Of a stretch of DNA of 64,000 nt, positions 3,993-59,979 are shown piece by piece. The DNA comes from Minisyncoccota bacterium. GTDB taxonomy: Bacteria > Patescibacteriota > Minisyncoccia > Minisyncoccales > RBG-13-42-11. The notes under the pieces were generated by a model. It was not told the DNA's origin and did no database searches. It saw only the letters and a program-made list of their open reading frames with translations. Every line of letters begins with the position of its first letter. Within the stretch, counting starts at the first letter, position 1. The stretch is taken from the NCBI GenBank assembly GCA_016782605.1, contig JADHYE010000001.1, positions 11,128 to 75,127 on the forward strand, written 5' to 3'. A program made the translations under genes and the position numbers.

Positions 3993-5033
3993 TTATTTGA
4001 AATACTTTACCTTAGCCGTATTGTGTTCGTCCAAGGTTTTGCTAAAAATAGTTTCTCCTTCCCTGGTGGAAAGATAATACCAGTAATCGCTATCTTGAAG
4101 ATAAACAGCAGCGATAATGCTTTCAAGTCCAGGATTACAAATCGGACCCAAGGGAAGCCCTTTGTATTTGTAAGTATTGTAGGGAGAATCAATTTCTGTA
4201 CCAGAAGCGATCTCTGATCTCATTTCGTCAAACGTCCAGTTTTCTTTTCCTAAGATATAAGCAATGGTGGCGCAGCTGCGCAAGGGTTCGCTATTCTCAA
4301 TCTTTCCCCAGAAAATGCCAGAAACTATTTTTTTGTCCTCCAAAGTTATTACTTCCTTCTCAAGAATACTAGCCATGGTCACTATTTCAAAAATAGTTTT
4401 GCCTTGTTTCTTAATTTCCTCTCTTAATTCAGAATTCAATTTCTTATCGAAATTAATAAGCATTTTTTCAACAACGCTTTCCATGCTTTCTTTGCTGGTT
4501 TTCTCGTAAGTATCGGGAAAAAGATATCCTTCCAGACTTAAATTCTCAGGCTTATCTCTAAGAAAAGCAAAATCAGCAGAAAAATCTTTTGAAGAAGAAC
4601 CGGTTATCGGAGAACCGACCAATCCAAAAAAATCATCAGCCCCAAATAAACCTTTGCTTTCAAAATAAGAAGCGATATCCCTTAAACTCCATCCTTCAAT
4701 AATAGTGATCTTTTCCTTTATGACATTGCCGGAAAAAAGCTTGTCAGCAATCTGAGGCATATTCATTGAAGGAGACAAAATATATTCTCCTGCTTTTAAA
4801 TAAGAAGCCATTCCCACAGTCAAAACATAAACCCGGAAAACAGGAGACCACCTTATCAATCCCTGATTTTCCAAATTCAAGCCGATGTCCCTTGAACCCT
4901 GACCCTTTTCCACGCTGAAAATAACTTCTTTTTCAGAATTCTGTTCTACGGGCAAAATAACCAGCCAGGAAGCAATCAGAACAATAATAACGACAATAAT
5001 TAAAATTAAAGATTTTTTCACCCCGTATATCAA
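3993..5033 (-). CDS. mltG: endolytic murein transglycosylase MltG (YceG family)
   Basis: 346 aa; N-terminal TM segment; YceG-like sequence. The called TTG start and first four codons (MIYG) lie inside the adjacent repeat element. The true start may be the GTG spanning 5019-5021. Confidence 0.75.
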   Translation of the reverse strand: MIYGVKKSLILIIVVIIVLIASWLVILPVEQNSEKEVIFSVEKGQGSRDIGLNLENQGLIRWSPVFRVYVLTVGMASYLKAGEYILSPSMNMPQIADKLFSGNVIKEKITIIEGWSLRDIASYFESKGLFGADDFFGLVGSPITGSSSKDFSADFAFLRDKPENLSLEGYLFPDTYEKTSKESMESVVEKMLINFDKKLNSELREEIKKQGKTIFEIVTMASILEKEVITLEDKKIVSGIFWGKIENSEPLRSCATIAYILGKENWTFDEMRSEIASGTEIDSPYNTYKYKGLPLGPICNPGLESIIAAVYLQDSDYWYYLSTREGETIFSKTLDEHNTAKVKYFK

Positions 5034-5152
5034 CCTCCAAGCATTTTCAATGCGAAAATATCCTGAAGGCTGTCTTTATTTAATAATATATTCAACATAA
5101 TAACTTTGTTTGAGATTTTAATACGAAGTATTCTGGAAGTTGTATTACGGGG
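5021..5152 (+). mobile_element. Family-1 miniature inverted-repeat element, copy 1 (divergent inverted-repeat ends; flanked by TTCA direct repeats)
   Basis: ccccgtatatcaacctccaa ... ttggaagttgtattacgggg; shared core gcattttcaatgcgaaaa...; fills the pcm-mltG spacer. Confidence 0.8.
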
Positions 5153-5153
5153 T

Positions 5154-5789
5154 TCATTTTTTCAATAAAGGAACGAAAATAAACCCTGGATGTTCTTTTT
5201 CTTCAAAATCAGTTTCGTTCTTTTTAATTAAAAGCCAGATTGAAGAATCAACCGGAGCAACAATCCTGCCTCCGATTTTCAGCTGCTTTTTCCAAGAATC
5301 GGGAATATTAACAGCACTAGCAGATGCTAAAATCTTGTCAAACCCTTCGACAAACTCAGGGTGAGAGGAGATATTGGGATAACCGTTGTTTCCGTCAAGA
5401 CAGAAAAACTGAACAATCCCCTTTTTAACGAAATTATATTTTGAAACGTTTTTCTCGCCAAAGTCCTTCAATTCCTGGATTATATCAAGGGAAATAACCT
5501 TTCCTTTTTTACCGACAATTTCAGCTAACAAAGCGCTGGTCCAGCCAGAGCCTGAACCAACATCCAAAACCTTATCCCCTTCATGCAAATCCAGCAATTC
5601 CATCATAAAAGCAACAACCAAAGGCTGAGAAATGGTCTGGCCGAATCCTATAGGCAAAGCCTCGTTGATCTCTGCTAAATTCTTTGAGTCTTCCGGCAAA
5701 AAATCGCTTCTCTTTATTTTTTTAAAAGCTTCTATCACTTTCGGCGTTTTCAGCCAGTTATCTTTAATTAGCTCTTCAATAAGCGGCAT
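5154..5789 (-). CDS. pcm: protein-L-isoaspartate O-methyltransferase
   Basis: 211 aa; SAM-binding motif LDVGSGSGW. Confidence 0.85.
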   Translation of the reverse strand: MPLIEELIKDNWLKTPKVIEAFKKIKRSDFLPEDSKNLAEINEALPIGFGQTISQPLVVAFMMELLDLHEGDKVLDVGSGSGWTSALLAEIVGKKGKVISLDIIQELKDFGEKNVSKYNFVKKGIVQFFCLDGNNGYPNISSHPEFVEGFDKILASASAVNIPDSWKKQLKIGGRIVAPVDSSIWLLIKKNETDFEEKEHPGFIFVPLLKK

Positions 5790-5790
5790 A

Positions 5791-5860
5791 CTAGGTAGTA
5801 GAAATTCGACAAATTTATTTTTCTTTGCTGCCAGGCAGCAGTCGAATTTTCACTACCTGG
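5791..5860 (+). mobile_element. Family-2 miniature inverted-repeat element, copy A (flanked by CATA repeats)
   Basis: ctaggtagtagaaattcgac ... gtcgaattttcactacctgg inverted-repeat ends; its left end abuts the pcm ATG and the element overlaps the last approximately 15 codons and the stop of def. Confidence 0.75.
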
Positions 5861-6312
5861 CATAGTTTTTGTGGTAAACTCATTTTATCAATAAATAGTA
5901 TTCCGTCCAAGTGGTCAATCTCGTGCTGGAAAACCCTGGCTGACAATCCATCAACTTTCATTTTGATTTTTTCCCCCTGCAGATTAAGAAACTCCAGTTC
6001 CACTTCCTTAGCTCTTTTAATCTTTAAAAACAAACCAGGAAAACTCAAGCATCCCTCTTCCATGACTTCTGTCTTTCTGCTTTTCCGCACGATCTTTGGA
6101 TTTATGAAAACTTGCGACTTTCCTTCAAAAAAAGCAGCGATTATGCTTTTTGATTCGCCGATCTGAGAAGCAGCCAATCCAATGCCGTCTTTTTCCATCA
6201 TTATCTTTTTCATTTCTTCGGCCAATATCTTCACCTCCTCGGTTATCTCCTTGATCGCAGAAGATTTCTTTCTCAGTATTGGATTTGGATATTCTAATAT
6301 TTGCTTACTCAT
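5815..6312 (-). CDS. def: peptide deformylase
   Basis: 165 aa; motifs EGCLSFPG and HEIDHLDG; the C-terminal approximately 15 codons are encoded by the Family-2 element. Confidence 0.9.
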   Translation of the reverse strand: MSKQILEYPNPILRKKSSAIKEITEEVKILAEEMKKIMMEKDGIGLAASQIGESKSIIAAFFEGKSQVFINPKIVRKSRKTEVMEEGCLSFPGLFLKIKRAKEVELEFLNLQGEKIKMKVDGLSARVFQHEIDHLDGILFIDKMSLPQKLCQVVKIRLLPGSKEK

Positions 6313-10847: not shown

Positions 10848-10915
10848 ATTGCTTATTTGCTTGCCGAGCTGCAGCAAGATAGAAGAAGAGATTTATCTCT
10901 TCGCTTCTTTGTGAA
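10848..10915 (+). repeat. Family-3 hairpin-pair element (GCTGCAGC palindrome plus GAAGAAGAGAT-TT-ATCTCTTCGC hairpin) abutting the start codon
   Basis: same two-hairpin layout as the 15138-15270 and 56365-56433 copies. Confidence 0.55.
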
Positions 10916-13348: not shown

Positions 13349-13480
13349 CCCTGTATATCAACATCCAGGCATTTTCAATGCGAAAACACCCTGAAGATTG
13401 TCTTTATTTAATAATATATTTAACATAATAACTTTGTTTGAGATTTTAATACGAAGTATTCTGGATGTTGTATTACGGGG
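13349..13480 (+). mobile_element. Family-1 element, copy 2 (flanked by CATA repeats)
   Basis: ccctgtatatcaacatccag ... ctggatgttgtattacgggg; abuts the trmD ATG. Confidence 0.85.
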
Positions 13481-14447: not shown

Positions 14448-15137
14448 TTACCAATGTTTGACTGCTAAAGCGTTTTTCGCTGCCTCAACTTCTGCTTCTT
14501 GTTTTGAAGATCCTTTGCCTTCGGCCACTAAATCCTTATCAAGGAAAACGCCGATAACGAAATTCTTTGCGTGATCCGGCCCGTGTTCTTTCAAAACTTT
14601 ATAGGTCGGAGTAATGCCCACTCTTTCTTGGGCTGCTTCCTGGAAAGTGGATTTAGCATCCCTGAAAAGACCTTTCTCAATGATTTCCGGCAATTTAACG
14701 ATTAAATTCTTTTTAATGAATTTTTCGCATGCTTTATAGCCTGAATCAAGGTAAGCTGAACCGATAAACGCTTCAAAAGTGTTGGCCAGGATATAATCCC
14801 TTGATTTGCCTGTTTCTTTCATTTCTCCTTTTGAAAGAAGCAAAAAATCATTAAAGCCCAATTCCTTAGCAACCTCAGCAAGCATTTTAGCATTAACCAG
14901 AGAAGCGCGCCAGTTGGTCAATTCGCCTTCCGGCTTTTTGGGATATTTGACAAAAAGGTGTTCGGTAATAATAAGTTCCAAAACCGCATCTCCCAAAAAT
15001 TCCAGTCTTTCATTGTTATCCAGATTGGCTTTCGGATTCTCGTTCAGATAGGAGCGATGGCAAAAAGCCTGAATCAATAAATCCTTGTTTTTGAATTTAA
15101 AATTTAATTGCTTTTCCAATATTGAAAAATCATTCAT
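14448..15137 (-). CDS. rnc: ribonuclease III
   Basis: 229 aa; catalytic signature ERLEFLGDAVLEL; C-terminal dsRBD. Confidence 0.9.
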   Translation of the reverse strand: MNDFSILEKQLNFKFKNKDLLIQAFCHRSYLNENPKANLDNNERLEFLGDAVLELIITEHLFVKYPKKPEGELTNWRASLVNAKMLAEVAKELGFNDFLLLSKGEMKETGKSRDYILANTFEAFIGSAYLDSGYKACEKFIKKNLIVKLPEIIEKGLFRDAKSTFQEAAQERVGITPTYKVLKEHGPDHAKNFVIGVFLDKDLVAEGKGSSKQEAEVEAAKNALAVKHW

Positions 15138-15270
15138 ATACCGAGTCCGCCCAAGGCGGGCGAAGGTGAAGAAGAGGTTTACCTCTTCGACTTACTTTTC
15201 TAATACCGAGTCCGCCCAAGGCGGGCGAAGGTGAAGAAGAGGTTTACCTCTTCGACTTACTTTTCTAATT
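15138..15270 (+). repeat. Family-3 hairpin-pair element present as a perfect 2 x 65-bp tandem duplication filling the nusB-rnc spacer
   Basis: The unit ccgagtccgcccaaggcgggcgaaggtgaagaagaggtttacctcttcgacttacttttctaata occurs twice with 100% identity (15141-15205 and 15206-15270). It starts right after the rnc ATG, and the last four codons and stop of nusB lie in the second unit. Confidence 0.85.
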
Positions 15271-16656: not shown

Positions 16657-19600
16657 ATGAAATTTACCCAGCACCACTTTCCAAAGGAAAAATCTATTCC
16701 CCAAGAAAAAGCCACAAAAAGTGGTGCGGTGTTTACTCATTTACACGTCCACTCCCACTACAGCCTATTGGATGGCTTACCGAAAATCGACCAACTTTTG
16801 GATTACGTAAAAGAACTGGGCATGGACTCTGTCGCTATCACTGACCACGGCAACATCTACGCTGCCGTGGAGTTTTATAAGAAGGCAAAAGAAAAAGGCA
16901 TAAAGCCGATTATCGGATGCGAGATGTATACGGCCCTTGAAAAGATGGCTGACAAAAGGCCAAATATTGACGACAAAAGACACCACCTTGTTTTATTGGT
17001 TAAAAACGAAAAGGGCTACAAGAATTTGGTAAAACTGATAACTAAAGCCCACTTGGACGGATTCTATTATAAGCCGAGGATCGACGATGAACTGCTCAGC
17101 CAATATTCCGAAGGCCTTATCGGCCTTTCTGCTTGTTTGGCCGGAAAAATACCAAAACTGATTCTGGCAAAAAAAATGGAAGAAGCTGAAAAAGTCGCCA
17201 AAAATTATCAGAAGATTTTTGGAAAAGATAATTTTTATCTTGACATACAGCACCATCCCAATTCCGCTGACCAAAAAACAGCAAACAAAGGATTAATCGA
17301 GCTTTCCAAAAAAACAGGCATTCCCTTGGTCGCTACCAATGACGTCCATTACTTGAGACCGGAAGACTCTGATGCCCAAGACATATTAATGTTAATCAAT
17401 ACAGGTTCTGACCCCAATGATCCTGAAAGATTAAGCTTGAAAATGGATGACTTTTCAATGAGAAGCCCGGAACAAATGGCAAAAGATTTCAAAGATCTGC
17501 CGGAAGCCATTGAAAACACGCAGAAAATCGCTGACCTTTGCAACTTCCAATTTGAACTGGATAAAGTAAAGCTTCCCCAATTTGCCGTACCAACCGGAGA
17601 AGATCCGAATACGTATATAGAAAAACTCTGCCAAAAAGGGCTGACTTCAAAATTCGGGGAAAAACCGGAAAAAGAAGTTATTGAAAGGATGAATTACGAA
17701 CTTTCCGTAATCAAACAAACAGGCTTTACTTCATATTTTTTAATTGTCCAGGATTTTGTCAACTGGGCCAAAGAAAACAGAATTGTTGTCGGGCCTGGCC
17801 GGGGCAGCGTCGGCGGATCTTTGGTCGCCTATCTTCTAAATATTACCAATATTGACCCTTTAAAGTACGATCTTTTATTTGAAAGATTTTTGAATCCGGA
17901 AAGAATTTCCATGCCTGATATTGATTTAGATTTTACAGACAGAAGAAGGGACGAAGTGATCCAGTATGTCAGCCAAAAATACGGCCGGGACAAAGTGGCC
18001 CAGATCATAACATTCGGGACCATGGCAGCCAGAGCAGTAGTCAGGGATGTTGGCAGAGCCATGGGACAACCTTACAGCTTTTGCGATCAGATTGCTAAAA
18101 TGATTCCTTTCGGCATGACGCTTGATGAAACGATGAAAAAAGTAAGCGAATTCAGTTCTTTATATGAATCAGACCAAGAAGCTAGAAAACTGATTGACGC
18201 TGCCAAAAAGTTGGAAGGAGTGGCCCGCCACGCCTCAACCCATGCCTGCGGAGTGGTAATCTCAAATACTCCTTTGGACGAAATCGTGCCTCTGCAGCAC
18301 CCTACCCAGAATGACCAAAACATTGTCACCCAGTATGAAATGCATTCTATTGAAGACTTGGGAATCTTGAAAATGGACTTTTTGGGATTGAAAAACCTGA
18401 CCATTATTGAAGACACCCTTTCCAGAATCTACGTCATTCATGGAACAAACCTTAATATTGAAAAGATTCCGACAGACGACAAAAAAACATACAAGCTTTT
18501 TCAAACCGGAGGAACAGTCGGCGTATTCCAGCTTGAGTCGGACGGCATGAGAAGATATCTAAAACAATTAAAGCCGACTGAGTTCGAAGACATTATTGCC
18601 ATGGTAGCGCTTTACCGCCCTGGCCCGATGCAGTTAATTCCCGACTATATCAGCAGAAAAAACAAAAAACAGAAAATAGAATACTTCCATCCTAAGTTGA
18701 AACCGATCCTGGAGAAAACCTACGGCATTGCCGTTTATCAAGAACAGATTATGCGAATCGCCAAAGATATGGCAGGATTCACATTAGCTGAAGCTGACGT
18801 TCTCAGAAAGGCAATCGGCAAAAAGATAAAAGAGCTTTTAATGTCTCAAAAGGAAAAATTCATAGCAGGAATGAAAAAAAACGAGATAAGCGAAAACATT
18901 GCCCAGCAAATCTGGTATTGGATTGAACCTTTCGCCAGCTACAGTTTTAACAGAAGCCATGCTGCTGCCTATGCCACTATCGCCTATCAGACAGCTTATT
19001 TGAAAACCCACTTCCCTGCAGAATTCATGTCGTCTCTTCTGACTTCAGAGAGAAACGATATTGAAAGAATCGCTGTCTTGATCGAAGAATGCAAGAAAAT
19101 GGGCCTGACCGTTCTGCCGCCGGATATAAATGAAAGTTTCACCTTTTTCAGCGTGGTGCCGAAAAAGAACCAGATAAGATTCGGGCTTTCAGCGATTAAA
19201 AATGTCGGTTCTAATATCGTGGAAGTGGTGGTCAATGAAAGAAAAGCAAACGGCCCTTTCATTTCAATCGATGATTTCCTTACCAGAACCAGCTCAAGAG
19301 ATCTCAATAAGAAGTCTTTGGAGAGTTTAATAAAAACCGGAGTTTTTGATAAAATGGCAGAAAGAAACCAGATGCTCTCTAACATTGAAAAGATTCTGGA
19401 ATACGCCAGAGAAAGCCAAAAAACCAAGACTAACGGCCAGACAGGCCTGTTTGACGGAATGAGTTTTAACAACCATATTCATTTGCCAGACACTACCCCA
19501 GCTTCGGAAAAAGAAAGATTGACCTGGGAAAAGGAACTGCTGGGACTCTTTATCAGCTCCCATCCTTTAAACGGATTCGAAAAGCTCCTGGAAAAGAAAG

Positions 19601-19905
19601 TGGTTTCCATAGCCAAGCTTTCAGGCAATGGCTTAAGAAGAAACGCCAGAGTCAAAATTGGAGGCATTATTTCGAATATTAAAAAAATAATAACCAGGAC
19701 GGGCAAACCAATGCTTTTTGTAAACGTGGAAGATTTAAGCAGCAAAATGGAAGTGATCGTCTTTCCGAACATAATCGCTAGAAACCCGTCAATTTTCCAG
19801 GAAAATAAGATTGTCATGGTTTCAGGCAGACTTGATTCAAAAGATGGCATCCAAAAAATAATCTGCGAAGAAATCGAAGAGATATTAGATATAAAAGAAA
19901 ATTAA
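16657..19905 (+). CDS. dnaE: DNA polymerase III alpha subunit
   Basis: 1082 aa; PHP domain HVHSHYSLLDG; polymerase core motifs. Confidence 0.9.
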   Translation: MKFTQHHFPKEKSIPQEKATKSGAVFTHLHVHSHYSLLDGLPKIDQLLDYVKELGMDSVAITDHGNIYAAVEFYKKAKEKGIKPIIGCEMYTALEKMADKRPNIDDKRHHLVLLVKNEKGYKNLVKLITKAHLDGFYYKPRIDDELLSQYSEGLIGLSACLAGKIPKLILAKKMEEAEKVAKNYQKIFGKDNFYLDIQHHPNSADQKTANKGLIELSKKTGIPLVATNDVHYLRPEDSDAQDILMLINTGSDPNDPERLSLKMDDFSMRSPEQMAKDFKDLPEAIENTQKIADLCNFQFELDKVKLPQFAVPTGEDPNTYIEKLCQKGLTSKFGEKPEKEVIERMNYELSVIKQTGFTSYFLIVQDFVNWAKENRIVVGPGRGSVGGSLVAYLLNITNIDPLKYDLLFERFLNPERISMPDIDLDFTDRRRDEVIQYVSQKYGRDKVAQIITFGTMAARAVVRDVGRAMGQPYSFCDQIAKMIPFGMTLDETMKKVSEFSSLYESDQEARKLIDAAKKLEGVARHASTHACGVVISNTPLDEIVPLQHPTQNDQNIVTQYEMHSIEDLGILKMDFLGLKNLTIIEDTLSRIYVIHGTNLNIEKIPTDDKKTYKLFQTGGTVGVFQLESDGMRRYLKQLKPTEFEDIIAMVALYRPGPMQLIPDYISRKNKKQKIEYFHPKLKPILEKTYGIAVYQEQIMRIAKDMAGFTLAEADVLRKAIGKKIKELLMSQKEKFIAGMKKNEISENIAQQIWYWIEPFASYSFNRSHAAAYATIAYQTAYLKTHFPAEFMSSLLTSERNDIERIAVLIEECKKMGLTVLPPDINESFTFFSVVPKKNQIRFGLSAIKNVGSNIVEVVVNERKANGPFISIDDFLTRTSSRDLNKKSLESLIKTGVFDKMAERNQMLSNIEKILEYARESQKTKTNGQTGLFDGMSFNNHIHLPDTTPASEKERLTWEKELLGLFISSHPLNGFEKLLEKKVVSIAKLSGNGLRRNARVKIGGIISNIKKIITRTGKPMLFVNVEDLSSKMEVIVFPNIIARNPSIFQENKIVMVSGRLDSKDGIQKIICEEIEEILDIKEN

Positions 19906-23288: not shown

Positions 23289-23318
23289 AAGCGGCCTTGA
23301 GAAGGCCGTTTTGCTGTT
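23289..23318 (+). terminator. intrinsic terminator (GCGGCCTT-GAGA-AGGCCG followed by TTTTGCTGTT)
   Basis: lies inside the track's N-terminal extension of the next ORF, which argues for the later start. Confidence 0.6.
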
Positions 23319-23332
23319 ATAGAATAAAAGAT

Positions 23333-24391
23333 ATGCTAAAGTACCAAATCATCACTTTCGGTTGCCAGATGAATAAAGCGGATTCAGAAAGAATTGCCAC
23401 GACATTAGAAAAGAAGGGCTATAAGCCGACAAAAGACTCAAACAAAGCCAATCTGGTTTTAATTAACATGTGCTCTGTCAGACAGTCAGCAGTCGATAGG
23501 GTCTATGGTAAAATCAACAATTTGAAAAAGATTAAAGTAAAAAATCCAAAACTTAAAACTATTCTTACTGGCTGTATTCTTAAAAAAGACAAAAGAAAGT
23601 TTGAAAAGTTTTTCGATGAAATTTGGAGCAATAAGAACCATTTCAAAGAAAAAGCCAAATGTCAAAACAAGTCCTTAGCTTTCGTGCCAATTTCCAACGG
23701 CTGCAATAATGCCTGTACTTACTGCGTTGTCCCATATACCAGAGGCGCTTTGAACTGCCGAAGCCATAAAGAAATACTGAAAGAAGCTAAAAGTTTTATT
23801 AAAAAAGGATTAAACCCCATTAGAAATGCGATTTCTAACGGGGCAAGGGAAATCTGGCTTTTGGGGCAGAACGTTAACGATTATCATTCGCCAACGAATA
23901 AAACAATAAATTTTGCCAGGCTTTTGGATCTGATAAATGACATTCCAGGAAACTTTAGGATTCTCTTCACATCTCCCCATCCCAAGAACTTTTCCGACGA
24001 ATTGATTGAGTCTTTAGATCGCTGCCAGAAATTCGGCAATTACCTTAACATACCCGTCCAATCGGGAAATGACCAGATATTAAAGAAAATGAACCGTAAT
24101 TATACGGCCAAAGAATATAGAAAGCTAATAGAAAAAATAAAGAAAAAGATACCGAAAATAAAGTTATCTACCGATATTATCGTCGGCTTTCCAGGAGAAA
24201 CCAAAAAACAGTTCCAAGATACGGTAAAACTGTTTAAAGAGATTAAATTTAACTGGGCCTATATTTCAAAATACTCTCCTCGTCCAGGCACCGCTGCCTT
24301 TAAATTAAAAGATGACATCTCCCTGTCAGAAAAAAAGAAAAGAGAAACCATTTTAAGAGAAATTTTAAAAAAAGCATGGAAAATAAACTAA
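23333..24391 (+). CDS. radical-SAM methylthiotransferase (MiaB/RimO family)
   Basis: N-terminal MTTase domain ITFGCQMN; CNNACTYC radical-SAM motif; start moved to MLKYQ because of the terminator upstream. Confidence 0.8.
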   Translation: MLKYQIITFGCQMNKADSERIATTLEKKGYKPTKDSNKANLVLINMCSVRQSAVDRVYGKINNLKKIKVKNPKLKTILTGCILKKDKRKFEKFFDEIWSNKNHFKEKAKCQNKSLAFVPISNGCNNACTYCVVPYTRGALNCRSHKEILKEAKSFIKKGLNPIRNAISNGAREIWLLGQNVNDYHSPTNKTINFARLLDLINDIPGNFRILFTSPHPKNFSDELIESLDRCQKFGNYLNIPVQSGNDQILKKMNRNYTAKEYRKLIEKIKKKIPKIKLSTDIIVGFPGETKKQFQDTVKLFKEIKFNWAYISKYSPRPGTAAFKLKDDISLSEKKKRETILREILKKAWKIN

Positions 24392-25532: not shown

Positions 25533-25653
25533 GAATACCACCTCCTTATATATTAAATTATACTACTTTTTTCTACTTTGTCAACCCGGTAGTAGGTTTT
25601 GGACTCATTCGCCGAAGGCGAATAAAAGAAAGCGTGGCTTTGTCCAAAATTCA

Positions 25654-27087
25654 CTACCGTGTCAATATAGCTTTGAGAAGCTTATTAACTGTCTGGGGAT
25701 TGGCTTTTCCCTTTGATTTTGCCATAACTTGGCCGACTAAAAACTGAAGGACACTTTCTTTGCCCCCTTGATAATCTTGAACTACTTTTTGGTTTTCAGA
25801 AATTACTTCTTTAATAATCTTCTCAATTTCAGCTTCATCGCTAATTTGAACCAAACCTTCCTCTTGTATAATCTGCGAAGGGTCTTTCCTATTTTTTAAC
25901 ATCTCCTCCAAAACCATCTTTGCTCCCTTGCTTGAAATTTTATCTTCGGGAATGGAAATAATAAATTTAGCAAAAAGCTCCAGTGAAGGCCTATTCGGAA
26001 TATTATTTTTCTTCATTAGTCCTGGTAAGTCAGTAATCAGATAATTAGTAGCTCGCTTAATTGCTTTTACTAATTCCTTTTTTGAAACGGAAGCTTTAAT
26101 TTCTTGAATAACTCCCTCAAAATATTCCCCTAAATTCTTATTGTATACGAAAATATTAACGCTATTTTTATCCAATCCGTATTCTTTTAATAATCTTTCC
26201 TTTCTTTTCTGAGGAAGTTCGGGAATTTCATCTCTAATCTCTTCTATTTCCTTTTTAGTAAAATGCAGAGGCGGTAAGTCGGGCTCTGGAAAATATCGAT
26301 AATCATGAGCTTCTTCTTTCTGCCTTTGACTAAAGGTTACTTCTTTAATATCGTCCCATCCCCTAGTTTCTTGGATAATCTTTTCTCCTTTATTTAATAA
26401 ATCAATCTGCCTTTTAATCTCATAATCAATTGAGTGTTCTACTGACCTGAAAGAATTGAGGTTTTTAATCTCAACTTTTGTCCCCAATTCCTTTCCCTTG
26501 GTTACAGAAATATTCACTTCCACCCTCATCTGTCCCTTTTCCATATCAGCATCAGAAATATCCAAATAATGCACGATTAAATGAAGCTCTTCGGCAAATT
26601 CCTTTGCTTCTTTGGCTGAAGAAATATCAGGTTCTGTCACTAACTCCATCAAAGGAATGCCGGCTCTGTTAAAATCAACCAGAGAATAATCAGCTCCTTG
26701 AGGATGTAAAAGCTTACCCGTATCTTCTTCCAGATGAATCCTTCTGATTTTTATTTTTTTCCCCCCAATTTCTAAAAATCCTTCTTTACAGAAAGGCTGA
26801 TGCCATTGAGAGATCTGATAACCCTTTGGTAAATCAGGATAAAAATAACTTTTTCGCTCAAATTTTGAATATTCGGCAATCTGACAGTTTAAAGCTAAAC
26901 CAGTCTTTATCACCTTTTTTACAGCTTCCTCGTTAATGACCGGCAAAGTACCAGGATGACCCATACAAACAGGACAAACATTAACATTGGGCTGTTTTTC
27001 ATCTGGATCATTTAAACAACCACAAAACATCTTAGTTTTGGTTTTTAATTCAATGTGTATTTCAAGACCGATTGTCGGCTTATACAT
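25654..27087 (-). CDS. gatB: Asp/Glu-tRNA amidotransferase subunit B
   Basis: GatB N-terminus YKPTIGLEIHIEL; start moved to MYKPT (27085-27087) to remove the overlap with deoC. Confidence 0.9.
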   Translation of the reverse strand: MYKPTIGLEIHIELKTKTKMFCGCLNDPDEKQPNVNVCPVCMGHPGTLPVINEEAVKKVIKTGLALNCQIAEYSKFERKSYFYPDLPKGYQISQWHQPFCKEGFLEIGGKKIKIRRIHLEEDTGKLLHPQGADYSLVDFNRAGIPLMELVTEPDISSAKEAKEFAEELHLIVHYLDISDADMEKGQMRVEVNISVTKGKELGTKVEIKNLNSFRSVEHSIDYEIKRQIDLLNKGEKIIQETRGWDDIKEVTFSQRQKEEAHDYRYFPEPDLPPLHFTKKEIEEIRDEIPELPQKRKERLLKEYGLDKNSVNIFVYNKNLGEYFEGVIQEIKASVSKKELVKAIKRATNYLITDLPGLMKKNNIPNRPSLELFAKFIISIPEDKISSKGAKMVLEEMLKNRKDPSQIIQEEGLVQISDEAEIEKIIKEVISENQKVVQDYQGGKESVLQFLVGQVMAKSKGKANPQTVNKLLKAILTR

Positions 27088-34845: not shown

Positions 34846-34930
34846 CCCCGCACCACTTTGCAGAAGAAATCTTCTTTTTAATATTTTGAAACAACTAATG
34901 AGATTTAAGTTGCATCAAAGTGGTGCGGGG
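34846..34930. repeat. 15-bp perfect GC-rich inverted repeat (CCCCGCACCACTTTG) with a 55-nt spacer between gyrB and secE
   Basis: arms at 34846-34860 and 34916-34930; one arm lies next to the secE -35. Confidence 0.6.
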
Positions 34931-36872: not shown

Positions 36873-37019
36873 CCCCGTATATCAACTTCCAGAACCAAAC
36901 GCCGTTAGGTGCGTTTTAGCCTGTAAGCGGTTATTTGATAATAATTTCATATTTACAACCATTTGAGTTATGCCCGGCGTTTGTTTAGAACGCACCTTAC
37001 TGGAAGTTGTATTACGGGG
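36873..37019 (+). mobile_element. Family-1b element (copy 3): Family-1 inverted-repeat ends with an unrelated palindromic core
   Basis: ccccgtatatcaacttccag ... ctggaagttgtattacgggg; the core has its own inverted repeat (aaacgccg..ggtgcgtt / aacgcacc..cggcgttt); left flank cata, right flank catt. Confidence 0.75.
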
Positions 37020-41790: not shown

Positions 41791-41922
41791 CCCCGTATAT
41801 CAACATCCAGGCATTTTCAATGCGAAAACACCCTGAAGATTGTCTTTATTTAATAATATATTCAACATAATAACTTTGTTTGAGATTTTAATACGAAGTA
41901 TTCTGGATGTTGTATTACAAGG
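41791..41922 (+). mobile_element. Family-1 element, copy 4 (flanked by CATA; variant right end ..ttacaagg)
   Basis: its terminal 8 bp supply the last codon and TAA stop of gatA. Confidence 0.85.
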
Positions 41923-43345
41923 CATATAATTTTGATATTTCTAAAATTTTATCTTCTTCGAACGGCTTGCCGATTATCTGAAGTCCGACAGGAAGATTGT
42001 CTATCTTACCGACAGGCAAGGAAACAGCCGGCAATCCAGCCAAACTGACAGGACCGGTAAAAACATCGCAAAGATACATTTGAAGCGGGTCTTTAATCTT
42101 TTCTCCGAGCTTGAAAGCCGGAGTCGGCGCAACGGGTGTCATTAAAACGTCTACCTTTTTAAACGCCTTTTCAAAATCCTGTCTTACCAAAGTCCTTACT
42201 TTCTGGGCTTTCAAATAATAAGCGTCGTAATAACCGCTGGACAAAGCATATGTTCCCAAAATAATCCTGCGGCGTACCTCGTCTCCCAATCCCCTGCCCC
42301 TTGAACGCAAATAAACTTCCATTAAATCATTACTGCTTTTGTCCTGGTGTCCGTATTTTATGCCATCGTATCTTGCCAAATTAGCAGAAATCTCACAAGG
42401 CATAATTATGTAATAAGTAGCTATAGCGTAATCAGTATGAGGTAAACTTACTTCCATTATCTTTGCGCCCATTGCCTCGTATTTCTTTATCGCCTCTTTC
42501 ACTATTTTTTCCACTTCCTTATCAACTTCTTTGACAAAATATTCTTTGGGAACGCCTATTTTCAAGCCCTTGATTTTCAATCCATTGTTTTCAACCCTCA
42601 TATCAACCGAAGTTGAATCCATCTGATCTTTGCCCCTTATTACATCAAAAACAATCTTGCAGTCATCTATATTCTTGGTTAAAGGCCCTATCTGGTCAAG
42701 AGAAGAAGCCATAGCAATCAGTCCGAAGCGGGAAACTGCGCCGTAAGTCGGCCTTAACCCGACCACTCCGCAAAGAGAAGCAGGGTAACGTATCGAACCA
42801 GCTGTATCAGAACCCAAAGCGTAAACTGCCATGTCTGCGGCAACAGCAGCTGCTGAACCAGATGAAGAGCCGCCTGTTACCCTGGTTAAATCGCAAGGAT
42901 TCTTTGTCGGACCGAAGGCTGAATTCTCTCCGGAAGCTCCCATGGCAAACTCATCCAAATTGGTTTTTCCCAAAATAACCGCCTTTTCCTTTTTCAATTT
43001 CCTGACAACCGTAGCCTCATAAAGAGCAACGTAGTTTTCTAAAATCTTTGAAGCAGCCGTACACTTCAACCCTTCAACCATAATATTGTCTTTTACAGCG
43101 CAAGGAATGCCTGCCAGAACCGGTATGTTCTCGCCTCTCTTGATTATATCATCAACTTCTTCTGCTTGCTTTAAAGCTGTTTCCTCGATAACGGACAAAA
43201 AAGCAAAAATGTCTTTGTCTTTTTCCCTTATCTTTTCCAGATAAGCTTTGCACAATTCAACAGATGAGAACTCTTTGTTGACTAATCCTTGATGCGCCTG
43301 AGCAATGGTTAGATCCTGTATCTTCACCCCGTTAGAAGTTTGCAT
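41915..43345 (-). CDS. gatA: Glu-tRNA(Gln) amidotransferase subunit A
   Basis: Amidase signature is present. The first 6 codons (MQTSNG) fall inside the left inverted-repeat end of the element at 43327-43455, and the last codon plus stop fall inside Family-1 copy 4. Confidence 0.9.
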   Translation of the reverse strand: MQTSNGVKIQDLTIAQAHQGLVNKEFSSVELCKAYLEKIREKDKDIFAFLSVIEETALKQAEEVDDIIKRGENIPVLAGIPCAVKDNIMVEGLKCTAASKILENYVALYEATVVRKLKKEKAVILGKTNLDEFAMGASGENSAFGPTKNPCDLTRVTGGSSSGSAAAVAADMAVYALGSDTAGSIRYPASLCGVVGLRPTYGAVSRFGLIAMASSLDQIGPLTKNIDDCKIVFDVIRGKDQMDSTSVDMRVENNGLKIKGLKIGVPKEYFVKEVDKEVEKIVKEAIKKYEAMGAKIMEVSLPHTDYAIATYYIIMPCEISANLARYDGIKYGHQDKSSNDLMEVYLRSRGRGLGDEVRRRIILGTYALSSGYYDAYYLKAQKVRTLVRQDFEKAFKKVDVLMTPVAPTPAFKLGEKIKDPLQMYLCDVFTGPVSLAGLPAVSLPVGKIDNLPVGLQIIGKPFEEDKILEISKLYAL

Positions 43346-43455
43346 ATGTATTATTGGCCAAAAAAGACCAAAGGTTCTTTTTTGGCGGAAGTTTAACGAA
43401 ATAAAGTAATTGTTTAATCTTTAGCATGTTTAACCGTGGCAAACTTCTAACGGGG
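43327..43455 (+). mobile_element. Family-1c-like element: 17-bp perfect inverted-repeat ends (CCCCGTTAGAAGTTTGC) flanked by TTCA repeats, spanning the gatC-gatA spacer and the gatA start
   Basis: ends at 43327-43343 and 43439-43455 with TTCA on both sides; an internal CCAAAAAAGACC..GGTTCTTTTTTGG hairpin; the gatA ATG lies inside the left end. Confidence 0.6.
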
Positions 43456-47811: not shown

Positions 47812-47943
47812 CCCTGTGTATCAACATCCAGGCATTTTCAATGCGAAAACATCCTGAAGATTGTTTTTATTTAATAATATATTTAACATAATAACTTTGT
47901 TTGAGATTTTAATACGAAGTATTCTGGATGTTGTATTACGGGG
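47812..47943 (+). mobile_element. Family-1 element, copy 6 (flanked by CATA)
   Basis: abuts the frr ATG and fills the holB-frr spacer. Confidence 0.85.
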
Positions 47944-51893: not shown

Positions 51894-52192
51894 CTCGGCA
51901 CCTCCTTTCTTTATTTCTTATCTTTCGTTAATATATTAATCAAATCCTTACCTTGCAGGATATAATATGAATTCAACCTCCATCTCTCTTCTCTGCTCCT
52001 CACCATATATATCAACCCATATTGGACATAAAATGAACCACCGCTCCCCTCCTTCTACAATCACATATATTACCACGCTCTTTCCAAAATGTCAACCCCA
52101 TTAGAAGTCCGCCTTGCCGGAGGCATGGCGACAGCCACCAAGGGGGCAGCTTACTTCTAACGGAGTCAAGATTGAGGTATAATAATCATATG

Positions 52193-52264
52193 CCAGGTAG
52201 TGAAAATTCAACCACTGCCGCGGCAGTGAAAAAAATAATAATTTGTCGAATTTCTACTACCTAG
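52193..52264 (-). mobile_element. Family-2 element, copy C, inverted relative to copies A and B and abutting a plus-strand gene (flanked by TATG)
   Basis: ccaggtagtgaaaattcaac cactgccgcggcagtg ... tcgaatttctactacctag; the ATG at 52266. Confidence 0.75.
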
Positions 52265-52265: not shown

Positions 52266-53570
52266 ATGACCAAAAAGACAAAAACAATACTGTTTTTAGC
52301 CTGCTTACTTGCATTCATCCTGTTAGCTCCCTCAATAGTCCTGTACTCCCAAGGATACAGAATTGATTTTAATCCTCCAGAAGGCGGAAAAATGATTACC
52401 CAAACCGGAGGCCTTTTTTTGAAAGTCACGCCCAAACAAACAGATATTTATATTGACGGCAAACCTAAAAAAAGAACTGATTTTCTATTCGGTTCTGTTT
52501 TAATTGAAAACCTCATTCCTGGAAAGTACAAAGTAGAAATCAAAAAATTAACCAGCCAGGAAGAATACTATCCCTGGGAGAAAAACCTGGAAATACGGGA
52601 AAAACAGGTAACTGAAGCCAAGAACGTTGTCCTTTTCCCGAAAAACGTTAATTTCAACGTCTTATCAACCAACGTAGAACAGCTTTGGCTTTCTCTGGAC
52701 CAAAAGAAACTAATCTTAAAGGAAAATGAAAAAGCCAGCTGGTCCTTAAAGCTTTACGACCCGGAAAAGAATATAAAAAGCTATTTAATAAGCGACGAGG
52801 ATTTCTTCACGAAAGAACCCCAATTAATCAATCTGAAATTCTCGGGAGACTCAAGAAGTATTAATCTGGAAGTCAGCATAAAAGAAGCAATACAATCTTT
52901 TTCTCTGCAACTTGACCAAGCAAAACCAACTTTAAATAAAAAAACAGCAGCCACAACGACAACTGGAAACGCTGCTATCTCGCAACAAGCAGGCAATGAT
53001 ATATATTATCTGGACAGTTTCGGCTATCTTTTCAGGAATAAAGAAAAGCTGGCAGAAACTCCCTTTCAAACAAAACAAGAAACAGAATATGCTTTAGATA
53101 TTTTCAACGGCAACATATTCTTAAAAGAAAACGACAAACTGTACAAATTCAATTACAATCTGAAAACATTTGAACATTTCTTTGACGGAATCAATATCTT
53201 AAAGCTTTCTCCGGACAATAAAAAACTGCTTTACGCTTCAAACAATGAAATGTGGATTCTTTTCCTGGAAGACAAAATCGACCAGCCGCAGAAAAAATCA
53301 GGAGAGAAAATCTTTTTAATCCGCTTATCAGACCAAATCACAAGCATCTCCTGGATAAACGACAATTACCTGGCTTTTCTTGCCGGCAATACCGTTAAAA
53401 TCATTGAAATAGACGACAGGGACAGAATAAACGTTATAGACATCTTTGAAACAAAAAACCTCCCTCAAGAAGGAAGCATTAATGAAATGTCCTGGAACAG
53501 GTTTGACAATAAAATCTATCTCTTGGACGAAAACGGCTATTTATATAGCTCTAACGTCCTGCTCCCGTAA
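52266..53570 (+). CDS. hypothetical secreted or anchored protein (N-terminal TM, PEGA-like segment, beta-rich C-terminal region)
   Basis: 434 aa; no family recognised. Confidence 0.4.
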   Translation: MTKKTKTILFLACLLAFILLAPSIVLYSQGYRIDFNPPEGGKMITQTGGLFLKVTPKQTDIYIDGKPKKRTDFLFGSVLIENLIPGKYKVEIKKLTSQEEYYPWEKNLEIREKQVTEAKNVVLFPKNVNFNVLSTNVEQLWLSLDQKKLILKENEKASWSLKLYDPEKNIKSYLISDEDFFTKEPQLINLKFSGDSRSINLEVSIKEAIQSFSLQLDQAKPTLNKKTAATTTTGNAAISQQAGNDIYYLDSFGYLFRNKEKLAETPFQTKQETEYALDIFNGNIFLKENDKLYKFNYNLKTFEHFFDGINILKLSPDNKKLLYASNNEMWILFLEDKIDQPQKKSGEKIFLIRLSDQITSISWINDNYLAFLAGNTVKIIEIDDRDRINVIDIFETKNLPQEGSINEMSWNRFDNKIYLLDENGYLYSSNVLLP

Positions 53571-54740: not shown

Positions 54741-54872
54741 CCCCGTATATCAACATCCAAGCATTTTCAATGCGAAAACACTCTGAAGGCTGTTTTTATT
54801 TAATAATATATTCAACATAATAACTTTGTTTGATATTTTAATACGAAGTATTCTGGATGTTGTATTACAGGG
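54741..54872 (+). mobile_element. Family-1 element, copy 7 (flanked by CATA; variant right end ..ttacaggg)
   Basis: abuts the rpsI ATG; its last 8 bp supply the final codon and TAA stop of rplM. Confidence 0.85.
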
Positions 54873-56364: not shown

Positions 56365-56433
56365 ATAGCGAGTCCCGCAACAACGGGACGAAGGTTAAGA
56401 AGAGGATGAATTCCTCTTCGATTTATTTTGAGT
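56365..56433 (+). repeat. Family-3 hairpin-pair element filling the rpsD-rpoA spacer
   Basis: atagcgagtcccgcaacaacgggacgaaggttaagaagaggatgaattcctcttcgatttattttgag; starts right after the rpoA ATG and contains the rpsD stop. Confidence 0.7.
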
Positions 56434-57053: not shown

Positions 57054-57185
57054 CCCTGTATATCAACATCCAGGCATTTTCAATGCGAAAATATCCTGAA
57101 GGCTGTCTTTATTTAATAATATATTTAACATAATAACTTTGTTTGATATTTTAATACGAAGTATTCTGGATGTTGTATTACAAGG
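57054..57185 (+). mobile_element. Family-1 element, copy 8 (flanked by CATA; right end ..ttacaagg)
   Basis: abuts the rpsD ATG and fills the rpsK-rpsD spacer. Confidence 0.85.
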
Positions 57186-57642: not shown

Positions 57643-57794
57643 AATGGTAATACCTAATTAGGTCGCGGCACGTCCCACTTGCAGCGGGACTAACACCGCT
57701 CTTTAAAAACCCTCGGTTTTTAATATTTTCCTACACGGAAGAACCAAAGGGTTCTTCCGACCCATCTCCGATATGGGACGTTATTACTGAATTA
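57643..57794 (-). promoter_or_regulatory. rpsK leader sharing hairpin modules with the rplK and rplJ leaders
   Basis: 57721-57790 matches 33820-33870; 57691-57705 (taacaccgctcttta) matches the rplJ leader; the approximately 30 nt before the ATG are shared. Confidence 0.5.
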
Positions 57795-58306: not shown

Positions 58307-58339
58307 AATAAAAAAACAATAATGACTTATTGCGCGAAA

Positions 58340-58555
58340 CTATTTTCCGCGGTATGTTATTCTTCCTTTTTTCAGATCATAGGGGCTTAATTCAACCGTC
58401 ACCCTGTCGCCCGGCAAAACCTTTATCCTGAACATCCTTAATTTACCTGCCAAATGGCACGAAACCTCCTCCCCGTCATCCAGCTTAACTTTAAAATGCG
58501 TGCTGGGAAGAGCTTCTGTGATTATTCCGGTTTTTATTAAGTCATTCTTATCCAT
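58340..58555 (-). CDS. infA: translation initiation factor IF-1
   Basis: 71 aa S1-like OB fold; ..[30 protein letters not shown]. Confidence 0.9.
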
Positions 58556-58603
58556 TAAATAGGCAATTTTTTAGTTTATCAGAAATTAGTTATTTGGTCA
58601 ATG

Positions 58604-59905
58604 CTAATCAATGACCAGATTGAATTTAATCTTACTTAGGTCTTCTGGCACCTTATTGACCCAGAATGGCCAAAACTTGACGCTGGCCCTGGTAATCTTA
58701 GGATAGTTTTCCAAGAAGAGCTTAGCCTCGAGCAAAGACTTTCCTTTTAAGGCGTTTTTAAAGCTGAAAATGTCAACGTCAGCATAGATTTTAGCTGAAA
58801 TTGTCAAAGAAACAGCAATTTTGCCGGTCTCTAAATCAACATCGTCAATAGAATAATTTATTTTCAAACTTTCCTCATAAAGCTTTTTATCCTGGGGAAT
58901 TTGAAAAGTAATCGCTTCTTTAACGTAATTCCTAATATCTTCTTTCTTAAACACTACGACTTGGCATTGCGCTTTCACCTGATAATTAAAGTCTTTTGCT
59001 TCTGTTTCAGCAGAAGTCAAAGAAAAGTTCTCAATAATTTCTGTCTGGATGCTGTCTGGCAAATAATCGAACTTGGAAGAAATCGCTTCTGACTGCAGTT
59101 CTTTCTGCAGCAGTTCATTGCATTCTTTCTCCGCTTGTTTTGTTAAAGTTTCTTCAGCTTGAGATAAATCCTTTTCTGTCACTTTAGCAATTTCTTCATG
59201 GAAGCCGCCTGCCATTGCTTCAAAAGATTCGCCGTAGAATTTAGTATACCTGTCTGTGCCGGCAAATCCCGGTACGGAGAACTTGGTCAAAGCGATATTG
59301 TATTCTTCGCCAGGCTGATCTGCCACCACTTTTACATCTATTTCTCCTGGAACAAGCTTTCCTTTCTCATAAGTACCTCCAGGAACAGTAACTTTGATTG
59401 GCGTGCGGAATACCTTTCCGTCAGCTGAAACAAAACGGGTAGTGGCTATTAAAACCTGCTGCGAAGTTGAATAGGCATTGTACACTTTTATTGTGCCTTG
59501 CGCCTTCTCCTCTTTCATAATTTTACCGGAAGCCGGAAAAGTCTGAACAATGGTTTTTTCTTTCTGAAGCGTTTCTGCCGGAATAATCTTTAAAAGAGAA
59601 TCAATAGCTGTTGCGTTTTTGTCGATATTCGTTTCTTCTATAAGATTAAAAACTTCTGTCTCCGGCCAAACGCTTATTTCAGCTTTAGACAAAGCAATGT
59701 AGCAAAACGCTCCCAATAAAACCAAAAAAAGCAAAGAAAAAGTCAAACCCTTTTTAAAGGGTGGATTAGGAGCTTTTTTAGGAAAACCCCACAAAGGAAC
59801 CTTGGGCTTTTGCTCTAGTTCTATCTTTACTTCTGGCTCTTTGTGCTCCTCCTTTTTTTTCTCTTTTTTCGAAGGAGGGAAAACGTCTATTACTTTTTTG
59901 CTCAT
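58604..59905 (-). CDS. hypothetical protein with Lys-rich N-terminus and one TM helix
   Basis: 433 aa; no family recognised; the ATG is flush with Family-2 copy B. Confidence 0.4.
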   Translation of the reverse strand: MSKKVIDVFPPSKKEKKKEEHKEPEVKIELEQKPKVPLWGFPKKAPNPPFKKGLTFSLLFLVLLGAFCYIALSKAEISVWPETEVFNLIEETNIDKNATAIDSLLKIIPAETLQKEKTIVQTFPASGKIMKEEKAQGTIKVYNAYSTSQQVLIATTRFVSADGKVFRTPIKVTVPGGTYEKGKLVPGEIDVKVVADQPGEEYNIALTKFSVPGFAGTDRYTKFYGESFEAMAGGFHEEIAKVTEKDLSQAEETLTKQAEKECNELLQKELQSEAISSKFDYLPDSIQTEIIENFSLTSAETEAKDFNYQVKAQCQVVVFKKEDIRNYVKEAITFQIPQDKKLYEESLKINYSIDDVDLETGKIAVSLTISAKIYADVDIFSFKNALKGKSLLEAKLFLENYPKITRASVKFWPFWVNKVPEDLSKIKFNLVID

Positions 59906-59906
59906 A

Positions 59907-59979
59907 CCAGGTAGTAGAAATTCGACTAATTAAACATTATTATCACTGCCGCGGTAGTGGTCGAATTTTCACTACCTGG
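59907..59979 (+). mobile_element. Family-2 element, copy B (flanked by CATA)
   Basis: ccaggtagtagaaattcgac .. cactgccgcggtagtg .. gtcgaattttcactacctgg. Confidence 0.75.

Follow-up and report, generated by a model that had tools for sequence, protein, structure and literature searches.

Why should twelve short inverted-repeat elements in a compact bacterial genome each stand flush against a start codon, in the orientation of the gene whose start they abut? The question is raised by a stretch of 64,000 nucleotides (nt) from a Minisyncoccota bacterium (contig JADHYE010000001.1, positions 11,128 to 75,127), hereafter called the window. It is gene-dense, with 36-40% G+C and housekeeping genes mostly on the minus strand, including those for ribosomal proteins, tRNA synthetases and RNase III as well as gatCAB, frr, gyrB, dnaE and rpoA. 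Two of its proteins, S4 and the ribosome recycling factor, match those of a Candidatus Pacebacteria metagenome-assembled genome at 100% identity, which places the organism in the Patescibacteria. Comparison with related genomes establishes that the elements are real, recent insertions. [quoted passage not shown]

Repeat searches of the window recovered 12 elements with terminal inverted repeats (TIRs) that abut start codons. They comprise eight copies of family F1 (seven of 132 nt and one 147-nt variant), three of F2 (70-73 nt) and one of F4, a CCCCGTTAG-ended element at gatC-gatA; a further TIR family, F5, appears below. The original prediction for this locus, made from the letters alone, had the same three Family 2 copies and the gatC-gatA element but counted nine copies of Family 1 and its relatives, one more than the F1 copies we found. 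In the list of the twelve elements, L033, L034, L169 and L170 are related genomes, ORF stands for open reading frame and aa for amino acids.

5021..5152, minus strand: F1, non-autonomous, 132 nt, between pcm (5154-5789) and a YceG/mltG-like gene; TGAA duplication
5791..5860, minus strand: F2, non-autonomous, 70 nt, between def and pcm; TATG duplication
13349..13480, minus strand: F1, 132 nt, flush with the trmD start; TATG on both flanks
36873..37019, minus strand: 147-nt variant of F1, between pheT and gyrB; site empty in L169 and L170
41791..41922, minus strand: F1, between gatA and a 176-aa ORF
43327..43455, minus strand: F4, 129 nt, perfect 18-nt TIRs (CCCCGTTAGAAGTTTGC), at gatC-gatA; TGAA duplication from an ATGA overlap; empty in L169 and L170
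47114..47245, minus strand: F1, between frr and rseP; TATG duplication; empty in sister genomes
47812..47943, minus strand: F1, between holB and frr; TATG duplication; empty in sister genomes
52193..52264, plus strand: F2, 72 nt, flush with the ATG of a plus-strand gene (52266-53570)
54741..54872, minus strand: F1, between rplM (L13) and rpsI (S9); absent in sister genomes, which have a 14-nt gene overlap there
57054..57185, minus strand: F1, between rpsK (S11) and rpsD (S4); empty in L033, L034, L169 and L170
59907..59979, minus strand: F2, 73 nt, flush with the start of a 433-aa gene downstream of alaS; empty in L034

The TIR arms are 18-23 nt long and complementary at 17 of 20 positions in F1, at 87% in F2 and at 18 of 18 in F4. 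In gene sense, by which we mean the orientation of the downstream host gene, F1 reads TATG-CCCCGTAATACAACATCCAG...CTGGATGTTGATATACGGGG-TATG-gene and the three F2 copies read TATG-CCAGGTAGTGAAAATTCGAC...GTCGAATTTCTACTACCTGG-TATG. No more than 1 nt separates the 3' end of the element from the host start codon in any of the 12 copies, which bears out the claim that the elements abut starts in a fixed orientation. Flanks in gene sense are TATG/TATG in nine copies, AATG/TATG in one and TGAA/TGAA in two, those at 5021 and 43327; on the plus strand TATG becomes CATA and TGAA becomes TTCA, so that this tally agrees with the ten CATA and two TTCA copies reported before. Both TGAA copies replace a former ATGA stop/start overlap, and the host gene there now starts at a GTG built in part from the final G of the element. 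The F2 copy at 52193, inverted with respect to the chromosome, faces a plus-strand gene; orientation thus tracks the gene and not the chromosome, as had been proposed. The elements were also said to fill their spacers exactly. This holds on the start-codon side but not upstream at 13349, 52193 and 59907, where at least 27 nt are left. At 13349, the upstream ATG opens a 41-codon ORF that ends 10 nt short of the trmD ATG, and at 41791 the gatA stop is now a TAA within the 5' TIR.

Sister genomes were found through relatives of S4 and of the ribosome recycling factor (RRF) that came with genomic context. Two of them, L169 (RRF 95% identical) and L170 (89%), are collinear with the window over approximately 36.8-58 kb. 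All seven TIR-element junctions that can be compared hold a single target copy in both, and in the sister genome they read as follows:

S11-S4: ttaaacTTATGag
L13-S9: 14-nt gene overlap
holB-frr: ttttTATGgat
frr-rseP: aataaTATGgtt
gatC-gatA: aaATGAAgac
gatA-orf176: 14-nt gene overlap
pheT-gyrB: aaaaTATGtca

The ATGA overlap at gatC-gatA and the 14-nt overlap at gatA-orf176 had been predicted from the window before they were seen in the sister genomes. S11-S4 is also empty in L033 and L034 (S4 88% and 80% identical), and the F2 site on the alaS side (59907) is vacant in L034. Over a 20-kb syntenic block, the window has 11 elements and the sister with the 95%-identical RRF has one; the only element common to the window and L169 is the F2 copy at 52193 (L169 5846-5922). 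Since the orthologous junctions are empty and keep one target copy, transposition is established and the 4-bp flanks are true target-site duplications. Both the duplications and this empty-site comparison had been put forward in the original prediction. The pattern named there as the mark of an ancient conserved leader, the same sequence in every orthologous spacer, was looked for, and the orthologous junctions proved to be empty.

What kind of element inserts in this way is seen in full-length F1 copies from other sequences. A class of approximately 312 nt consists of two 20-bp TIRs and a single ORF that runs through both. This ORF has no start codon of its own and opens at the upstream copy of the duplicated host ATG. 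It reads the 5' TIR as MPSNTTSS, continues through an interior of the form ...FFYVYVLES..RYIGYTNNLKRRIEEH...LIYFEGC..DAKRRENYLKTTQGRRFLGLRL... and reads the 3' TIR as FGSGS, whereupon the TGA of GTTGATATAC terminates it, 10 nt short of the host ATG. The TIRs differ everywhere at the same three positions (5' GTAATAC versus 3' GATATAC), and it is this difference that creates the stop in the 3' TIR. Among 30 copies of this class, the 5' ATG is flush in 28, the ORF is intact to the 3'-TIR TGA in 25 and a host ORF follows directly in 28.

The product of approximately 101 aa matches the Pfam GIY-YIG family PF01541 (E = 2e-15; 57 bits versus a cutoff of 22.6). An alignment of 38 sequences shows no variation at the catalytic residues Y14, Y25, G27, R35 and E59. 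Differences among sixteen intact copies are 0.23, 0.11 and 0.45 at codon positions 1, 2 and 3, a pattern that points to purifying selection on the nuclease, and DNA identity among intact copies is 94-97% in the TIRs versus 74% in the interior. Close homologues number in the hundreds in public databases, where they bear the name 'GIY-YIG nuclease family protein' or 'excinuclease ABC subunit C'; all start MPSNTTSS or MPRNTTSS, and their gene calls use the same ATG. The structure model (mean pLDDT 82) has a three-stranded sheet plus helices, with the TIR-encoded tails predicted to be disordered. Foldseek returned 1zg2 and Slx1 at probability 1.0; among solved structures, UPF0213 BH0048 and the nuclease domain of Slx1 come closest, and I-TevI and UvrC rank behind them. 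The full-length F1 product is, as judged from its sequence, a predicted GIY-YIG nuclease of the UPF0213/Slx1 branch. One apparent multi-copy active element, P0220, was discarded; its 62 contigs represent one locus sampled in many metagenomes.

The same layout occurs with other TIRs. A library-wide search gave 5860 representative GIY-YIG relatives at E <= 1e-3, and the N-termini of some of these translate TIRs of other types. P0242 (MPGSENSS...) lies between F2-type TIRs CCCGGTAGTGAAAATTCAAG and CTTGAATTTCTACTACCGGG, with an ATG before it and a TATG-host after it, and stops at a TAA immediately upstream of the 3' TIR. P0313 (MNPVR...SLTG) lies between F4-type TIRs TCCCGTTAGAGAT and ATCTCTAACGGGA within a TGAA duplication. 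It starts at the host ATG and stops at a TGA that is the downstream duplicate and overlaps the restored host ATG; in this F4 geometry the TGAA comes from an ATGA junction, and (A/G)TGA holds both the element stop and the host start. At alaS, P0285 has this design too, its duplication being TATG and its overlap ATGA. F1 and F2 TIRs are themselves identical at 13 of 20 positions, and F1, F2 and F4 are related families, each descended from its own TIR-bounded GIY-YIG gene of the same layout. The families had been described as sequence-unrelated, which these matches contradict. Given the shared GIY-YIG parentage and layout, the start-codon rule reflects common descent rather than convergence of unrelated cargo.

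Many small GIY-YIG proteins outside F1 end in ...YLTG, encoded by an inverted repeat (TATCTCACGGGG or CTAACGGGG) that matches a repeat near the 5' end. In L174 (780-1061), the ATG lies 9 nt outside the repeat and there is no evident duplication. The TIR-bounded layout may extend well beyond the lineages of the candidate phyla radiation (CPR) considered here.

A pattern search for paired F1 TIR cores gave 30 loci from genome assemblies whose labels include Saccharibacteria, Parcubacteria, Portnoybacteria, Terrybacteria, Curtissbacteria and Liptonbacteria, and the F1 5' TIR alone was found at no fewer than 120 metagenome loci (at least 120). The window TIRs equal the family consensus with 1-3 mismatches, their variant being CAACATCCAG. 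The two TIRs of a copy co-vary: CCCAG goes with CTGGG, CCCCG with CGGGG, and CAACTT with AAGTTG versus CAACAT with ATGTTG. We retrieved 133 distinct complete F1 copies, 77 of which have TATG/TATG flanks, and nearly all others have a flank containing ATG. At independent sites of F1 copies of at least 100 nt in other genomes and metagenomes, the host ATG begins 0-1 nt past the 3' TIR in 102 of 109 cases, and a T precedes it at 80 of 86 sites, versus approximately 50% of genes generally in the same sequences. L014 has two copies in opposite orientation, each facing its own gene. In the window, all ten insertions of the TATG type are at start-codon TATGs, of which there are 41, and approximately 30 other intergenic TATGs are vacant.

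F1 copies fall into four length classes, of 63-84, 120-153, 212-243 and 309-315 nt. The shortest are hairpin-only copies with the same TIRs, and a host ORF follows directly in only 2 of 19; their duplications are CTTG, TAAA or CATG, and the cargo-less short copies at CTTG have identical orientation in seven of seven cases. One short subfamily has CTTG, CATG, TTTA and TAAA flanks, by which we rejected a duplication inherited with the element through microhomology copying. Tandem arrays in L057 and L106 arose from repeated insertion into one tetranucleotide.

Elements were also seen to stack (L099, L057, L106, L154, L002 and L019), with tandem copies sharing one TATG, TAAA or ATGA between them. 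In L002, an F2 and an F1 copy adjoin at one start codon, and the TTGA of an F1 3' TIR in L099 (approximately 2184-2400, reverse strand) harbours a nested element of 38 nt, CCCCGTATAGC.... A leaderless geometry, in which TTGNNN-16..18-TANNNT ends 6-8 nt before the ATG, was noted at 12 of 91 F1 targets (L003, L010, L021, L027, L073, L121 and L125 among them); after insertion at such a target, the element ORF would head the 5' end of the transcript.

The window holds non-autonomous derivatives only. A search for a GIY-YIG domain or gene in the window found none, and a scan of 50 window proteins revealed neither a transposase nor a nuclease gene, in keeping with the earlier statement that no transposase is encoded here. 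The elements have TIRs, a duplication confirmed by empty sites, lengths of 70-147 nt, multiple copies and the same ends as the 312-nt copies. Window F1 copies share approximately 25-35 nt at each end with the full-length form, the 147-nt copy at 36873 retains a remnant of the nuclease C-terminus (RLQAKTHLTAFGSGS), and the F2 MITEs retain degenerate N-terminal motifs of the nuclease. The seven 132-nt F1 copies have a common but unrelated cargo, in which a 41-codon frame is open from the upstream ATG to the TIR stop. Such an open frame is kept in 23 of 65 MITEs of 100-160 nt (shuffled mean 3, maximum 9), so that an ORF universal to every element was rejected. The upstream start opens an ORF that, in 10 of the 12 window elements, ends no more than approximately 22 nt from the host start.

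Could the elements instead act as portable promoters, as had been suggested? No consistent sense-orientation match to a sigma-70 promoter was found inside F1 or F2. The F1 3' TIR reads TGaTATACT and resembles an extended -10 box, but only 4 nt separate it from the ATG, and no counterpart occurs in F2 or F4. The TIR stem also pairs both AUGs, with folding z scores of -3.3 to -7.4. With Rfam 15, only tRNAs in the window reached the gathering score, and nothing was matched at E <= 1 over F1, F3 or F6.

Mobilisation by the nuclease and re-initiation on the host gene are what we infer from this layout. Insertion duplicates (T)ATG at the host start, so that the upstream ATG, with whatever promoter and initiation signals the host gene had, now begins the element ORF, and the downstream copy still heads an intact host gene. 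The nuclease would act in trans on the TIRs, mobilising full-length copies and MITEs alike, and the machinery would prefer TATG in one orientation. The enzyme is probably structure-specific; its kinship with Slx1 suggests that it recognises the TIR hairpin or a cruciform. The original prediction included an enzyme acting in trans that favours TATG at start codons, and this remains a reasonable reading, but the DDE or IS200/IS605 type then suspected gives way to a candidate nuclease of approximately 100 aa. The host gene would be translated through termination and re-initiation after the element ORF, and as the TIR stem pairs both AUGs, ribosomes reading the upstream ORF would unmask the host start. 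Re-initiation would also explain why frame-keeping derivatives persist at starts and the 63-84-nt hairpin-only ones are found elsewhere. The sites of the short copies fit a machinery able to use other sites, combined with selection against out-of-frame reading past the host ATG. Termination-re-initiation is documented at overlapping or closely spaced gene pairs (PMC6728339, PMC10666635). Whether F1 is in addition a hitherto unrecognised class of autonomous transposable element and the smallest known (approximately 0.3 kb), with a sole nuclease of approximately 100 aa that reads its own TIRs as a DNA structure, depends on the host ATG and is translationally coupled, we regard as an evenly balanced proposition.

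Several points weigh against mobilisation by the nuclease and host re-initiation. The window has no nuclease gene, and the full-length copies come from other sequences. About a third of the MITEs keep the through-frame, which implies that re-initiation is not the sole route of host translation. Short derivatives with the same TIRs occur at CTTG and TAAA, and start-codon occupancy could owe much to selection. The TIR scans demanded exact matches, by which degraded copies were under-sampled, and host starts outside the window are ORF predictions only. The remaining points concern the enzyme itself: the nuclease of approximately 100 aa is a catalytic domain with no evident DNA-binding module, the combination of TIRs and a 3-4-bp duplication classically marks a DDE transposase, and we know of no GIY-YIG enzyme that serves as a transposase.

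These last points are also what gives some weight to the alternative that survives best, namely that the elements are ordinary MITEs whose mobility comes from a DDE transposase not seen here, for example of an IS1380/piggyBac-like type that has CC...GG ends and makes a 4-bp duplication, the GIY-YIG ORF being a passenger acquired between the TIRs; the hairpin-only derivatives with the same TIRs, which still move to other sites, fit it as well. We consider it unlikely. The nuclease is the only ORF in the 30 long copies and crosses both TIRs, and no F1 TIR pair at the spacing of a longer element was found in approximately 150 loci, nor any transposase family among the 50 window proteins. Above all, at least three further TIR lineages have their own diverged GIY-YIG gene in the same layout, which is expected where enzyme and ends co-evolve and is unlikely for passengers; four TIR lineages, each with its own nuclease, thus disfavour the DDE transposase with a passenger ORF. 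Solo or distant TIR pairs that might have marked a longer autonomous element proved to be contig ends, a nested insertion (L099) and a truncation fused to a gene (L098).

It is quite improbable that insertion is unspecific and that the start-codon pattern comes from purifying selection in a compact genome alone, the survivors being insertions at junctions where the ATG is regenerated. Only approximately 5 kb of the 64 kb is both non-coding and free of elements, derivatives that break the downstream frame are missing from start codons, and other duplications exist (TAAA, CTTG, TTTA, TAAG), all of which such selection would accommodate. It would not account for the excess of T before the ATG, for one tetranucleotide in one orientation in 77 of 133 copies, or for ten of ten TATG insertions at starts when some 30 free intergenic non-start TATGs are available beside the 41 at starts. 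The tandem arrays in L057 and L106 and the uniform orientation of the seven cargo-less CTTG copies speak against it too. That the elements are host-owned regulatory leaders or RNA-processing modules (a promoter, an RNase III site or an operator) and not mobile DNA, although the long stem pairing both AUGs, the RNase III gene of the genome and the position in operons that need balanced expression would suit this, is refuted as their origin and has next to no chance of being correct, in view of orthologous junctions entirely free of elements in four related genomes, the lack of an Rfam match even at E = 1, the lack of a consistent internal promoter and a nuclease encoded by the full-length forms.

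Known classes of mobile DNA were compared on structural grounds. DDE insertion sequences (IS1380/piggyBac-like) would carry a DDE transposase gene between the TIRs, where the long copies have the GIY-YIG ORF only, and no longer-spaced TIR pair appeared in the approximately 150 loci surveyed. IS200/IS605, which has subterminal hairpins, makes no duplication and inserts 3' of a fixed tetranucleotide, is excluded by terminal repeats and by flanks that are identical within a copy but variable between copies (TATG, TGAA, TTGA, TTTA, TAAG), and IS91-type and bridge-RNA (IS110) elements by true, variable duplications and terminal repeats. Integron attC sites, which lie in cassette arrays beside an integrase, do not apply, as the neighbours are core housekeeping genes and GTTGATA does not fit GTTRRRY. 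A GIY-YIG homing endonuclease gene was discarded, the product being a catalytic domain of approximately 101 aa only and the insertions lying before many unrelated genes.

Among described systems, the Correia/NEMIS elements of Neisseria and ERIC are short, multi-copy, non-coding elements with TIRs and a target duplication that lie adjacent to genes, are co-transcribed and can form long RNA stems. The window elements are alike in being short multi-copy TIR elements with a target duplication beside genes. They differ in that the duplication is (T)ATG or TGAA instead of TA, that they are flush with the start in fixed orientation, and that the parent is a TIR-to-TIR GIY-YIG ORF and not an insertion sequence with a DDE transposase. 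I-TevI and the T4 seg genes are selfish, with a GIY-YIG nuclease as sole product, and insert between or within essential genes. Homing enzymes of this kind, however, have a C-terminal DNA-binding domain, act at one cognate site via recombination and are without TIRs or duplications, whereas the elements described here have the catalytic domain alone, many target genes, TIRs and duplications, and a fold nearer Slx1/UPF0213 than I-TevI. In both sequence and structure, the product is most like UPF0213 proteins (BH0048, EF2693; YhbQ type) and the nuclease domain of Slx1, an enzyme that cleaves branched and stem-loop DNA. These are approximately 100 aa long and share the invariant Tyr, Tyr, Arg and Glu; they are described as cellular proteins and are not known as TIR-bounded or mobile. 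From the same bacterial group, rRNA-gene insertions carrying GIY-YIG ORFs have been described that belong to neither class of intron, group I or group II, and occupy many sites rather than homing to one (PMC11270868); the paper deals with rRNA genes only and reports no TIRs, duplications or start-codon capture. Our full-text literature search, for which subscription-only literature was outside the scope, found no description of GIY-YIG elements with TIRs and duplications or of start-codon capture, and the terms 'GIY-YIG transposase' and 'GIY-YIG transposon' were absent from the papers of the searched full-text library.

If the nuclease mobilises the elements, it would represent a new enzymatic class for DNA transposition beside DDE, HUH, serine, tyrosine and Cas1, and would lower the minimum size known for an autonomous mobile element. 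Such elements could then account for thousands of small proteins annotated as 'excinuclease ABC subunit C' or 'GIY-YIG nuclease family'. How a parasite survives in the tightest operons of a genome of approximately 1 Mb (rpsK-rpsD, rplM-rpsI, gatC-gatA and frr) and spares its host is apparent from the layout, in which the start codon is taken and translation returned. Insertion presence or absence separates very close CPR lineages, and a compact, orientation-specific element that targets start codons might serve as a genetic tool for them. Annotation is affected as well, through 41-codon ORFs, extended or truncated gene calls and the 'excinuclease ABC subunit C' labels. The gatA call at 43345 is lengthened by six element-encoded residues, and in L031 the 41-codon element ORF (2814-2939) is annotated as a gene and the S4 call (3001-3579) is shortened to 192 aa.

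Four further related elements had been missed in the earlier element list:

25585..25661, minus strand: F2-like, 77 nt; the TTGA duplication is the first four bases of a TTGACA-16-TATAAT promoter; no start codon there
34846..34930, minus strand: F5, 85 nt, CCCCGCACCACTTTG TIRs; TTGA duplication at a TTGACA -35 box
52096..52165, minus strand: F4-type, 70 nt; TTGA duplication at a TTGACA-17-TAATAT promoter on the minus strand
16667..16731, plus strand: F5-like, 65 nt; TTTA duplication; within dnaE (16657-19905)

The first three belong to a set of related TIR elements, seen also in L136, L038, L129 and L019, whose TTGA or CTTG duplication lies exactly where a -35 hexamer begins on its 5' side; the promoters involved are, for example, TTGACA-16/17-TATAAT, TAATAT or TAAGTT. 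As the duplicated TTG begins the -35 box, the promoter is regenerated downstream of the element. At 16667, the element and its TTTA add 69 nt in frame after dnaE codon 3, the PHP domain starting at residue 28, and the element appears to be read as a 23-aa N-terminal insertion of DNA polymerase III alpha. Rickettsia palindromic elements are mobile palindromes that keep reading frames intact and are thereby tolerated in expressed units, and the dnaE insertion behaves likewise. Those elements, however, sit within coding regions and have no known autonomous parent, whereas the elements described here target starts and have one. A 29-nt palindrome with F4-type ends only (CCCCATTAGAAAT-GCG-ATTTCTAACGGGG) lies at 23815-23843 inside a radical-SAM (MiaB-like) ORF (23297-24391), with no obvious duplication.

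Two further repeat families of the window lack this design. Family 3 is a two-hairpin motif, CGAAGAG-loop-CTCTTC TTCACCTTCG-GC-rich hairpin-CTCGG, and Family 6 is a multi-hairpin repeat:

56365..56422, minus strand: Family 3, between rpsD and rpoA; absent from L169, L170 and L034
15138..15256, minus strand: Family 3, duplicated in tandem (65-nt unit, 97% identity), between nusB and the directly following RNase III gene (14448-15137)
approximately 10860-10905, 340-410 and 63900-63965: further copies of the Family 3 motif
57643..57794, minus strand: Family 6, 152 nt, between rpsM and rpsK

Family 3 had been thought to obey the start-codon rule, a view that did not hold up: it has neither TIR nor 4-bp duplication, the copy near 10848 stops 12 nt before the ATG, and in other genomes the motif is usually not flush with starts. 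The copy at 56365, with no TIR and no 4-bp duplication, is outside the GIY-type families. The repeat unit at 15138 includes the last 11 nt of nusB, and a role of the motif there as an RNase III substrate or autoregulatory site is a possibility. The conserved motif recurs in many CPR genomes, in varied contexts (L009, L022, L034, L059, L086, L091, L093, L101, L106, L111, L116, L128 and L129), and Family 3 looks like another mobile or structured-RNA family. Relatives of Family 6 lie upstream of rplJ (approximately 3588-3760) and rplK (approximately 33576-33870). No Rfam family matched Family 3 or Family 6 in the search at E <= 1 mentioned above. Family 6 is missing at S13-S11 in L033, L169 and L170 (acataatattATGggt), with a duplication of at most 1 nt, and the absence of both families from sister genomes indicates that these are insertions too.

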